Sequence record: PX759567.1
Length of the DNA: 39,152 nt
Direction: 5' to 3' (one strand)
Origin: a phage
The notes under the pieces are model-generated. The model saw only the letters and a program-made list of their open reading frames with translations. It did no database searches and was not told the DNA's origin. The position numbers and the translations under genes were made by a program. Positions within the stretch are counted from its first letter, which is position 1, and each line of letters begins with the position of its first letter. This document shows, in pieces, positions 21,972 to 25,067 of this stretch.

Positions 21972-22454
21972 ATGTCTACTCAAGCCAATCGTAATGCGCT
22001 CGTAGTGGCGCAACTGAAAGGAGACTTCGTGGCGTTCCTGTTCGTCTTATGGAAGGCGTTAAACCTTCCTGTTCCAACTAAGTGTCAGATTGACATGGCT
22101 AAGGTGCTGGCGAATGGAGACAACAAGAAGTTCATCTTACAGGCTTTCCGTGGTATCGGTAAGTCGTTCATCACGTGTGCGTTCGTTGTGTGGTCCTTAT
22201 GGAGAGACCCTCAGTTGAAGATACTTATCGTATCAGCCTCTAAGGAACGTGCAGACGCTAACTCCATCTTTATTAAGAACATCATTGACCTGCTGCCGTT
22301 TCTCAGCGAGTTGAAGCCAAGACCCGGACAGCGTGACTCTGTGATTAGTTTCGACGTAGGTCCAGCTAAGCCTGACCACTCTCCTAGTGTGAAATCGGTA
22401 GGTATCACCGGTCAGTTAACTGGTAGCCGTGCTGACATTATTATTGCGGACGAT
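21972..22454 (+). CDS. 19: terminase large subunit gp19, exon 1
   Basis: N-terminal 161 codons matching T7 gp19 (...[15 protein letters not shown]); frame then hits GAA TAA inside the intron. Confidence 0.9.
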
Positions 22455-23290
22455 GAATAACCATGTCGTCCTTAAACCCATCTAAACAGGGAAACCCGGA
22501 GCCTAACATGGTATACGGCAATCCTGTGCTAAATGAGACAGCCATAAAGAGCCTTATAGGCCCCCTAAGCGTCTCTAAATGCCAAACGACTAAGTAGTAG
22601 GGCCAAGTGGCTCGAAACGGTGGGAGAGCATTTACGGATGCTCTAAGATATAGTCTCGTCTATGGTGAGAAGCCATAGCACCATTTATTACGTAACACAT
22701 AAGGAGTCTAACATGACCACTATGAAGAAAACTCGATATGAAGTAGGTTCAATCCATGAGTCCCCTAAAGGTCCGCTCAAGGTCCTCGAGTACATTCCGG
22801 GATATAAGGACCGCTCAACAGGTAAAAAAGTACATCCTCGCGTAGTAATTCGTATGATGAACACAGGGACTGTGCTCAACGTTCAAACCACGAATATACC
22901 AGATGGTAAGTTTGAGGACTATCGACGTACCACAGTTTACGGCATTGGGTATATAGGGTCTTCCATTAAAATCACCGCTAGAGGGACATTCATCCGGCGT
23001 GTGTATGACCTATGGGCCAACATGCTTAAGCGCGTGGTTCATGAGTATCAGGGAGTATCCGTGGACCCAAGATGGCTCAACTTTACGAATTTCTTGGCGA
23101 CTATTCCGGATGTTAAGGGATATGCTGCGTGGGAGCGTGGTGAGGATGTTCATCTGGATAAAGACCTAGCTGGGAATAAACGATACTCATTGGAGGACTG
23201 TGCGTTCATTCCAGCTAAAGACAACATTCGAGAGTCTTCGTTACGTAGGTGGCGTAAGAAATAACGAGCTTACGTTAAGATAATTATTCG
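22455..23290 (+). mobile_element. group I self-splicing intron (probably IA-type) within gene 19
   Basis: P1: exon GGACGAU (22448-22454) pairs with IGS GUCGUCC (22465-22471), U.G at splice site; ends in G; R/S-like core CGACUA (22587-22592) and AAGAUAUAGUC (22645-22655); P8-like hairpin 22625-22644; ligated exons restore D-D-V-E. Confidence 0.85.
22713..23264 (+). CDS. intron-encoded protein, family not recognised (putative homing endonuclease)
   Basis: 183 aa from ATG 22713 with AAGGAG 6 nt upstream (ORF track starts at 22662); lies 3' of the P7 strand; no canonical HNH, GIY-YIG or LAGLIDADG motif seen. Confidence 0.7.
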   Translation: MTTMKKTRYEVGSIHESPKGPLKVLEYIPGYKDRSTGKKVHPRVVIRMMNTGTVLNVQTTNIPDGKFEDYRRTTVYGIGYIGSSIKITARGTFIRRVYDLWANMLKRVVHEYQGVSVDPRWLNFTNFLATIPDVKGYAAWERGEDVHLDKDLAGNKRYSLEDCAFIPAKDNIRESSLRRWRKK

Positions 23291-24568
23291 GTGGAAATTC
23301 CATCTAACAGTGCAACTATGGGTGCCCGTGAGAAGTTATGGACTCTTGTTCAGGAGTTCGCTGCGTTACTTAAGCCGCTGCCTTCCTCTCGTGTTATCTA
23401 CCTTGGAACACCTCAGACCGAGATGACTCTCTATAAGGAACTTGAGGATAACCGTGGGTATACCACTATTATCTGGCCTGCTCTGTACCCAAGGACACAC
23501 GAAGAGAACCTCTATTACTCACAGCGTCTTGCTCCTATGCTACGTGCTGAGTACGATGAGAACCCTGAGGCACTCGCTGGGACTCCAACAGACCCTGTGC
23601 GCTTTGACCGTGATGACCTGCGTGAGCGTGAGTTGGAATACGGTAAGGCTGGCTTCACACTACAGTTCATGCTTAACCCGAACCTGAGTGATGCTGAGAA
23701 GTACCCTCTGAGGCTCCGTGACGCTATCGTAGCGGCCTTAGACTTAGAGAAGGCCCCAATGCATTACCAGTGGCTTCCGAACCGTCAGAACATCATTGAG
23801 GACCTTCCTAACGTTGGCCTTAAGGGTGATGACCTTCATACTTATCATGATTGCTCCAACAACTCAGGTCAGTACCAACAGAAGATTCTGGTCATTGACC
23901 CTAGTGGTCGCGGTAAGGACGAAACAGGTTACGCTGTGCTGTACACTCTGAACGGCTACATCTACCTAATGGAAGCTGGAGGTTTCCGTGATGGTTACTC
24001 CGATAAGACCCTTGAGTTGCTCGCTAAGAAAGCGAAGCAATGGGGAGTCCAGACGGTTGTCTACGAGAGTAACTTCGGTGACGGTATGTTTGGTAAGGTG
24101 TTCAGTCCTATCCTTCTTAAACACCACAACTGTGCAATGGAAGAGATTCGTGCTCGTGGTATGAAGGAGATGCGTATTTGTGATACCCTTGAGCCAGTCA
24201 TGCAGACTCACCGCCTTGTCATTCGTGATGAGGTCATTAGGGCCGACTACCAGTCCGCTCGTGACGTAGACGGTAAGCATGACGTTAAGTACTCACTGTT
24301 CTACCAGATGACCCGTATCACTCGCGAGAAAGGTGCTCTGGCTCATGATGACCGATTGGATGCCCTTGCGTTAGGCATTGAGTATCTCCGTGAGTCCATG
24401 CAGTTGGATTCCGTTAAGGTCGAAGGTGAAGTAATTGCTGACTTCCTTGAGGAACACATGATGCGCCCTACAGTGTCTGCTACCCACATCATTGAGATGT
24501 CTGTAGGAGGAGTTGATGTGTACTCTGAGGACGATGAGGGTTACGGTACGTCTTTCATTGAGTGGTAA
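23291..24568 (+). CDS. 19: terminase large subunit gp19, exon 2
   Basis: translation (V)[22 protein letters not shown]...SFIEW continues the T7 gp19 sequence; the GTG at 23291 is codon V, not a start. Confidence 0.9.
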
Positions 24569-24605: not shown

Positions 24606-25067
24606 ATGATAAACAAGAAGAAGTATGTTGTCGATAAGGAGACTGGTTGCTGGAACTTTAAGGGATGCAAGACTAAGACAGGCTATGGTCGTCTCCGTGT
24701 AAATGGAGTCCATTGGATGGCTCACAGGTATTCCCTGAGTTGTCATCTAGGTAGACCGATAGCTGATGGAATGGTTGTGATGCACCTTTGTGATAACCCG
24801 TCATGTGTTAACCCTGAGCACCTTAAGGAAGGGACTCAGAAGGAGAATATGGATGACTGTAAGGCCAAAGGTAGGATGTACAGACCGGGGGCCACAGGCA
24901 AACCAAAGACCAGTACGGCGAAGGTTATCTATCACGATGACTGGCGTAAAGACCAAGTTATCCGCTACCATGTACGCTGGAAATGGAAGCCGTCTCGTAT
25001 TGCTGAGAAGATGAGACTATCTATAACGTGGGTTAAGAGGGTCTTAGAGGAGTACGTAAGTCATTGA
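24606..25067 (+). CDS. free-standing HNH homing endonuclease (HNH_3-like)
   Basis: 153-aa ORF, strong RBS TAAGGAGG; motifs GCWNF..TGYGRL..AHRYS..HLCDNPSCVNPEHL..EN; no counterpart at this locus in T7. Confidence 0.85.
   Translation: MINKKKYVVDKETGCWNFKGCKTKTGYGRLRVNGVHWMAHRYSLSCHLGRPIADGMVVMHLCDNPSCVNPEHLKEGTQKENMDDCKAKGRMYRPGATGKPKTSTAKVIYHDDWRKDQVIRYHVRWKWKPSRIAEKMRLSITWVKRVLEEYVSH

Follow-up and report, generated by a model that had tools for sequence, protein, structure and literature searches.

A predicted His-less ββα-metal site in the putative homing endonuclease of a T7-type terminase gene intron

The phage sequence record PX759567.1, a stretch of 39,152 nucleotides (nt) that we call the window, carries a copy of gene 19, which encodes the terminase large subunit (gp19), that is split by a group I intron, and the intron contains an open reading frame (ORF) for a protein of 183 amino acids (aa) (Table 1). 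We conclude that this protein is very probably the homing endonuclease of the gene 19 intron. Catalysis is predicted, with the help of a structural model, to proceed through a metal site of D149 and N171 assisted by Y158 and K150, and we consider this assignment reasonably likely. The joint explanation that best accounts for the observations, and one that we regard as probable, is that the intron encodes its own homing endonuclease and that the enzyme has a beta-beta-alpha-metal (ββα-Me) site lacking the His that gave the superfamily its name. The same DKD...Y...N core may mark a very large clade of phage homing endonucleases (approximately 10,000 clusters at 50% identity) that use His-free Lys/Tyr chemistry and were missed by Pfam, NCBIfam, and a 2017 census, a proposal for which the case is evenly balanced. 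The interest of the protein is that the predicted His-less variant is apparently very common and has gone unrecognized by curated models.

A conserved protein encoded by the gene 19 intron

The ORF comprises 183 codons, from the ATG at 22713 to the TAA at 23262 to 23264. A mechanical ORF list also held a longer version of 200 aa that begins at an upstream ATG, 22662, which falls within the P9 hairpin of the intron. When six divergent intron copies were aligned, both the Shine-Dalgarno sequence and the string CTAACATG lined up on ATG 22713, and thus 22713 is the supported start. The coordinates and the alignment agree with the initial annotation, which had described an intron-encoded ORF with its own ribosome-binding site (AAGGAG, a 6-nt spacer, and ATG 22713). 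The start is inconsistent in public annotations, being an internal Met in the RefSeq entry of Salmonella phage Vi06 and the upstream ATG in phage CHRF_10025. The 183-aa protein had 59 homologues at E≤1e-22, and comparison of the window ORF with the Vi06 ORF gave a ratio of nonsynonymous to synonymous substitution rates (dN/dS) of 0.06 at a dS of 0.74 (Nei-Gojobori). We conclude from the homologues and the dN/dS that the ORF is under strong purifying selection and is far beyond a chance ORF. A second ORF of 44 aa (22463 to 22597, plus strand), the equivalent of which is annotated as a hypothetical protein in CHRF_10025 (1656 to 1763 of locus L003), lies inside the ribozyme core and is almost certainly not a gene.

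The reading frame of exon 1 halts two codons into the intron (GAA TAA), and joining the exons in silico gave a gp19 of 586 aa in which a Terminase_6N match spans the junction. The Rfam model RF00028 matched 22415 to 22678 over its full length with 49 bits, slightly below the gathering score of 50 bits; the same element scored 65 to 91 bits in three related loci and 44 bits in locus L014. As read from the sequence, exon 1 ends with GCG GAC GAT, the last nucleotide of the 5′ exon being U, the intron ends with G, and exon 2 begins with GTG GAA ATT, which places the insertion point between ADD and VEIP of the protein. The exon end GACGAU would form P1 by pairing with the internal guide sequence GUCGUC, the pair at the splice site being a U.G wobble. 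Most intron copies keep the string (T/G)GTCGTC, and locus L012 has TGTTGTC. Across six introns, P9 showed compensatory changes (CTATGG/CCATAG, CTGTAG/CTGCAG, CTCTATG/CATAGAG, CCCTATG/CATAGGG, and CTGCATG/CATGCAG), which supports a functional ribozyme. The ORF occupies the segment from the end of the core at 22678 up to a point 26 nt short of the 3′ splice site, and its earlier placement in the 3′ peripheral region of the intron was therefore correct. Our literature search on T7-like terminase introns, Vi06, and the fPS phages found no description of the gene 19 intron.

The intron was found at the identical codon boundary in Teseptimavirus (the window, PDP351P2, Vi06, and the CHRF phages), in Helsettvirus fPS phages, and in three metagenomic podovirus contigs. 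The insertion point was identical in Vi06, CHRF_10025, fPS-9, and loci L010, L012, and L014; the end of exon 1 was identical in the Klebsiella Drulisvirus ZX22; and in every T7-like copy the intron directly follows the same GACGAT. Identity of the intron ORF among these phages ranged from 43 to 99%. Intron and ORF shared 99% identity with those of the window in Teseptimavirus PDP351P2 and approximately 88% in Vi06 and its relatives, and the ORF was 74% identical at the protein level in the Yersinia fPS records (n = 18), the published account of which makes no mention of it. Terminase fragments of 164 to 165 aa and 400 to 426 aa flank the related ORFs in the metagenomic podovirus contigs and in ZX22. 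About 24 of the 281 phage records that matched the query region carried the intron, and the rest matched only the short exon ends. We conclude that the intron ORF encodes a protein that has been maintained and that the element carrying it is site-specific and sporadic in distribution. The setting is that of a homing endonuclease gene: residence in a self-splicing intron or as a free-standing gene, a conserved site of an essential gene, and sporadic distribution.

In the intron-less gene 19 of T7 or Salmonella phage C2, the sequence around the insertion point reads GCGGACGAC on the upstream side and GTTGAGATT on the downstream side. The last codon of exon 1 was GAT in all intron alleles and GAC in the two intron-less alleles examined (L017 and L018), and GAT would fit the U.G pair required in P1. 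Nearby synonymous differences (GTG GAA versus GTT GAG) could be co-conversion or target-immunity changes.

No intron is annotated in the public records of Vi06, CHRF_10025, ZX22, and fPS-9. Gene 19 of Vi06 (L001) is recorded as a pseudogene, and its intron ORF is labeled "HNH endonuclease" in RefSeq; CHRF_10025 (L003) and ZX22 (L004) are annotated with two separate "terminase large subunit" genes; and the split gene of fPS-9 (L002) is annotated as "Phage DNA packaging" and "terminase large subunit." The intron corrects the records that call gene 19 a pseudogene or two separate terminase genes.

Table 1. Features of the split gene 19 and its intron ORF in the window
Feature	Position	Strand	Remarks
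Gene 19 (terminase large subunit), exon 1	21972..22454	+	Ends ...IIIADD (GAT)
Group I intron, 836 nt	22455..23290	+	Rfam RF00028, E 6e-11; spliced gp19 intact
Internal guide sequence GUCGUC	22465..22470	+	Read from sequence; would pair with exon end GACGAU
P9 hairpin CTATGG-TGAGAAG-CCATAG	22660..22678	+	End of Rfam match; last core element before ORF
Shine-Dalgarno AAGGAG	22701..22706	+	6-nt spacer, then ATG
Intron ORF, putative homing endonuclease (PHROG 2081 family)	22713..23264	+	183 aa
N-terminal SH3/Tudor-like β-barrel, about residues 9 to 90	22737..22982	+	Presumed DNA-binding module
C-terminal helical and ββα domain, residues 93 to 183	22989..23261	+	Predicted
D149-K150-D151 codons	23157..23165	+	End of β1; invariant in 235 relatives and distant phage homologues
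Y158 codon	23184..23186	+	Invariant, inter-strand loop; candidate general base or nucleophile as in PacI
N171 codon	23223..23225	+	Invariant, first turn of helix; candidate metal ligand
Gene 19, exon 2 (VEIPSN...)	23291..24568	+	Includes Terminase-T7 RNaseH-like nuclease domain

A candidate active site and its predicted fold

The 183-aa protein matched phrog_2081, which is named "HNH endonuclease," over residues 3 to 181 (E 3.1e-43, 149.5 bits, profile positions 21 to 201) and, more weakly, phrog_953 and phrog_374, both of which carry the same name. The label given by PHROG and RefSeq has no detectable HNH domain behind it. A 2025 survey of introns in Bastillevirinae DNA polymerase genes reported nine PHROG 2081 proteins in which only DNA-binding domains were detected (PMC11878797); these are linked to the window protein by direct family membership in sequence, and they too are encoded by introns of essential phage genes and have no detectable catalytic domain. 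The initial annotation had considered a divergent or new homing endonuclease family, and divergence is indeed the best reading, but the family is not new, as it has already been clustered (PHROG 2081, 3e-43) and labeled (RefSeq, on the Vi06 copy), though on weak grounds. The family is large: a word-seeded search returned 1,162 clusters at 90% identity, and an exhaustive HMMER search returned 10,430 representatives at 50% identity with E≤1e-3, or 5,214 with E≤1e-10.

Conservation was compared in the close family, in distant phage homologues, and in 235 cores that were extracted with a regular expression, which fixes some positions and left a choice of K/R at 150 and of D/S at 151. Only K was found at 150 and only D at 151 in the 235 relatives, although the expression permitted the alternatives. 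The invariant or near-invariant residues are Y98, W101, M104, R107, W121, F127, L148, D149, K150, D151, Y158, S159, C163, F165, and N171, which give the C-terminal domain the family signature YxxWxxMxxR...W..F..F...LDKD...YS...C.F.....N. There is no conserved His anywhere in the family. In particular, the catalytic His expected at the C-terminal end of β1 is absent, and the invariant K150 stands there.

An AlphaFold2 model made with the family alignment (pLDDT 89.8, pTM 0.77) predicts that residues 93 to 183 form four helices followed by a strand (146 to 149), a loop, a second strand (164 to 167), and a helix (168 to 181), such that the β-hairpin and α-helix layout of the His-Me finger is present in the model. 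D149 is the last residue of the modeled β1 and K150 is the next, positions occupied by D-H in canonical HNH enzymes and by D-R in PacI. The architecture is probably an SH3-like DNA-binding barrel joined to a His-less ββα-metal core, which would be a variant of a known fold and not a new one. Foldseek comparison of the whole model with the PDB returned only SH3/Tudor barrels, none at E≤1e-3.

The spacing of the candidate residues parallels that of known nucleases. The catalytic residues of I-HmuI are D74, H75, and N96 (PMC12724721). K150 and N171 of the window protein are 21 residues apart, equal to the distance from H75 to N96 of I-HmuI, and the same count separates the corresponding residues of the canonical HNH_3 gene of the window itself. 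In PacI, Tyr replaces His, Asp and Asn bind the metal, and the part of base or nucleophile has been assigned to the Tyr in the loop (PMC5714182, PMC4081073). D92, R93, Y100, and N113 are the invariant residues of the PacI family, and Y100 lies 7 residues after R93, as compared to 8 between K150 and Y158.

If the prediction holds, the protein would be made from late transcripts, with its own Shine-Dalgarno sequence directing translation, and, in a mixed infection, would bind intron-less gene 19 at the conserved Walker-B-coding sequence, between ATTATCATTGCGGACGAC and GTTGAGATTCC. Contact with the DNA would be made by the SH3-like barrel at the N terminus and by the helical portion of the C-terminal domain, and the protein would nick or cut close to the bound site. 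Recombinational repair from an intron-bearing genome would then copy the intron and its ORF into the cut allele, and intron-carrying alleles would be immune because their target site is split. The chemistry would be that of a one-metal ββα-Me (HNH-type) site that has lost its name-giving His, with D149 and N171 holding the divalent metal, K150 in the His position, and Y158 either activating the nucleophile or being the nucleophile, as proposed for PacI.

Evidence against the prediction and alternative explanations

Several results weigh against a homing endonuclease with a His-less ββα-Me site. Pfam contained no family that matched the 183-aa protein at E≤10, the HNH, HNH_3, and zf-His_Me_endon models included. 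Comparison of the family by hhalign found nothing against the canonical HNH_3 protein of the window and nothing, at a probability of <1%, against either PacI alone or a nine-member PacI alignment. A hidden Markov model of the 235 cores scored about 0 bits by hmmsearch against PacI, its homologues, and the Lactococcus phage protein phi93_03, and pairwise Smith-Waterman alignment with shuffling gave a z of 1.2 against PacI. Because all sequence and profile tests failed, the link to PacI is structural and motif-level only, and the parallel of D-K...Y...N with D-R...Y...N of PacI and D-H...N of I-HmuI is drawn from spacing and predicted secondary structure. The two Cys4 zinc motifs of PacI are absent, as C163 is the sole conserved Cys of the family and CxxC pairs are lacking, and we know of no precedent for Lys at the general-base position. 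No activity, cleavage, or homing experiment has been reported for any family member that we found in the literature, nor did we find a literature account of the family's chemistry or of His-less homing endonucleases of this kind. Finally, the single "PacI-like" Skunavirus protein assayed in vivo, that of phi93 and a different protein from ours, is not among the two endonucleases reported to reduce plaquing of sk1, as far as the extract of that report goes (PMC12724721).

The absence of the His could instead indicate a catalytically dead His-Me finger derivative that binds only DNA or RNA, either as a splicing helper, as a regulator, or as the partner or immunity factor of another nuclease, such as the product of the HNH gene at 24606 to 25067. 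The His is missing throughout the family, but PacI is an active His-less enzyme with Tyr in its site, and the D-K-D, Y, and N residues of the family are invariant across thousands of clusters, as in an active site. Dead His-Me fingers are known, for example Smad MH1 and Enpp (PMC5714182). A candidate partner nuclease is at hand in the canonical HNH_3 gene just after gene 19 and in the canonical HNH_3 segment that precedes the DKD core in the relative P0260, yet most relatives have no other nuclease domain while having the contexts and DNA-binding additions of homing endonucleases, and for the free-standing relatives there is no intron whose splicing could be helped. We consider a dead derivative unlikely; were the site dead, the family would be a large case of a nuclease fold retained for DNA binding only. 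Somewhat less likely still is that the protein cleaves with a different, undescribed site, for instance Y98, D99, and R107 in the first helix, in which case the ββα likeness would be misleading and the protein would belong to a new class of homing endonuclease. Y98 and R107 are indeed among the conserved residues listed above, as are D149, K150, Y158, and N171.

The initial annotation could not place the protein in the HNH, GIY-YIG, LAGLIDADG, or His-Cys box families, and the searches bear this out: Pfam gave no usable match, NCBIfam gave none (zero families), and neither phmmer nor a profile of 35 family sequences found a usable match among PDB sequences, the weak IFT80 and Get1 matches being dismissed as noise. 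A canonical HNH, GIY-YIG, or LAGLIDADG enzyme that has diverged too far to be recognized, or an unrelated cargo gene, is very improbable. The PHROG and RefSeq labels speak for such an enzyme, and YGIGYIGS contains GIY-like and YIG-like letters, which had been taken as a YIGS-like hint. That stretch proved to be a contiguous, family-conserved linker between the two domains (VYGVGYxG), and no GIY-YIG domain was found by Pfam or by structural comparison. LAGLIDADG and His-Cys box enzymes were rejected, as there was no match in Pfam, in the PDB, or at the level of the fold. A maturase-like factor or cargo gene, both of which had also been suggested, is unlikely, as relatives occur free-standing and outside introns and are fused to the DNA-binding modules of homing endonucleases; a maturase role in particular misfits the existence of free-standing relatives.

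The remaining earlier hint, the resemblance of EDVHLD to the EDxHD motif of I-Bth0305I and other Vsr-like enzymes, did not survive comparison with the family. EDxHD denotes a composite motif, and not an unbroken string, whose catalytic residues are scattered over a Vsr-like α/β fold with a central mixed β-sheet and helices (PMC3239194). The string E144-D145-V-H147-L-D149, the only point in favor, exists in a single sequence; E144, D145, and H147 vary among the 235 relatives, with His at 147 in 54% of them; the model consists of helices and a ββα element and gave no match to Vsr or I-Bth0305I. An EDxHD enzyme is thus refuted at the level tested, and its probability is negligible. I-Bth0305I nevertheless resembles the window protein as a recently recognized endonuclease of a phage group I intron with a two-part architecture and a conserved target gene of the ATPase type (recA); it differs in its Vsr-like α/β fold and its scattered catalytic residues E, D, H, and D, neither of which is found in the window protein.

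A His-less ββα-Me homing endonuclease would also differ from the systems to which it is nearest. PacI (PDB 3LDY/3M7K; His-Me finger group 20) has no detectable sequence homology to the window protein, has two Cys4 zinc sites and Arg where the window protein has Lys, lacks the SH3-like barrel, and is a homodimeric restriction enzyme with an 8-bp site. I-HmuI and HNH_3 (His-Me finger group 2) share with the family a nuclease core combined, in relatives, with NUMOD/AP2 modules, a putative homing role, and the D-X...21 residues...N spacing; they differ in having His75 instead of the invariant Lys, the HNH_3 and zf-His_Me_endon models do not match the window protein, and the YxxWxxMxxR helix and SH3-like barrel are features of the window protein and not of I-HmuI. 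Group I introns with an endonuclease ORF and its own ribosome-binding site in an essential gene have been described in the T7-like phages PhiI and W31 (I-TslI) and in the cyanophage Pf-WMP3 (I-PfoP3I) (PMC3428280). Those introns interrupt the DNA polymerase gene and have a canonical HNH ORF in P6a, whereas the window intron interrupts gene 19 and has a His-less ORF after P9. The 2017 census of His-Me fingers recognized no more than three groups without the His, and the PacI group in it was small and mostly from giant viruses (PMC5714182); the phage family of the window protein was apparently not captured.

If the prediction is correct, a very common class of phage "HNH endonuclease" acts without the His that names the superfamily, and such genes, now invisible to curated domain models, require different annotation. 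The odd site of PacI would then be the tip of a major lineage and not a curiosity, and enzymologists would gain a second case, and an abundant one, of one-metal DNA cleavage assisted by Tyr. The enzyme of the T7-like terminase intron would be the minimal, 183-aa form of the clade and, given the availability of T7 genetics, a convenient model, and its small size makes it a candidate site-specific nickase or nuclease. Moreover, marker exclusion and mosaic boundaries around gene 19 in Autographiviridae could stem from an enzyme aimed at the Walker-B-coding site of T7-type terminase genes.

Relatives and neighboring genes

Compared to other members of PHROG 2081, 953, and 374, the window protein is the minimal form, with a barrel and a core but without C-terminal NUMOD or winged-helix modules. 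Longer relatives append NUMOD1, I-HmuI NUMOD-like, NUMOD4, AP2-like, or IENR1-like modules and contain no other catalytic domain, with the exception of P0260. Among 62 diverse relatives, Pfam matches were limited to NUMOD1, I-HmuI NUMOD-like, NUMOD4, one ThyA, one HNH_3 (the additional N-terminal segment of P0260, ahead of its DKD core), and three marginal matches (Glyco_hydro_109_C, DUF2207_C, and Urocanase_N) that are presumably due to chance. The N-terminal module is repeated two to six times in some relatives, and further relatives have three to six repeats of the SH3-like module. Tandem duplications (P0140, P0143, P0146, P0158, P0190, and others) kept LDKD...Y...N in one copy and lost it in the other, a pattern that suggests pseudo-dimeric enzymes with one active site.

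Family members were found in terminase introns, between tape-measure fragments, next to an intron-containing ribonucleotide reductase gene, and free-standing. The free-standing relatives adjoin DNA polymerase/helicase and ribonucleotide reductase genes, and at several of them no intron was detectable. In Lactococcus phage P1048 (L005), a relative of 255 aa (1108 to 1875) lies directly upstream of a ribonucleotide reductase gene, and a group I intron (2436 to 2814, Rfam 40.6 bits) lies 560 nt downstream of that ORF, a layout that resembles the "collaborative homing" of a free-standing endonuclease and an ORF-less intron. In Lactococcus phage C41431 (L009), a relative of 141 aa that lacks the barrel and is annotated as "HTH endonuclease" (1237 to 1659) has a "tail tape measure protein" fragment on either side, and Rfam detected no intron at this locus at E≤1. 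In the metagenomic protein P0271 (533 aa), the barrel and DKD core lie in frame between the N- and C-terminal halves of thymidylate synthase, which may reflect either a gene caller that read through an intron ORF or an insertion element that preserves the frame.

Downstream of gene 19, the window carries a free-standing canonical HNH_3 endonuclease gene (24606 to 25067, plus strand, 40 nt after gene 19; Pfam HNH_3, 2.7e-9) with the motif HLCDNPSCVNPEHL...N. Together with the intron ORF, this gene means that the terminase gene is flanked or filled by two distinct genes for putative homing endonucleases. The HNH_3 gene is arranged likewise in Vi06 (Vi06_50, called "7.7"). In fPS-9, the split gene 19 has g045, a "phage-associated homing endonuclease," just upstream and g049, an "HNH endonuclease," just downstream (557 to 952 and 3474 to 3689 of L002).

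Tblastn searches of phages with PacI gave marginal matches only, among them phi93_03 (IDRID...GY...CKYCN), which is nearer to PacI than to the family of the window protein. This published "PacI-like" Skunavirus protein of Lactococcus phage phi93 (492 to 1055 of L016; motif IDRIDSSKGY...CKYCN) lies between two "DNA methylase" fragments, and it may also occupy an insertion element. Its N-terminal GKLTV...CxCxCGN...SCGC module is shared with some of the window protein's relatives, such as P0151.

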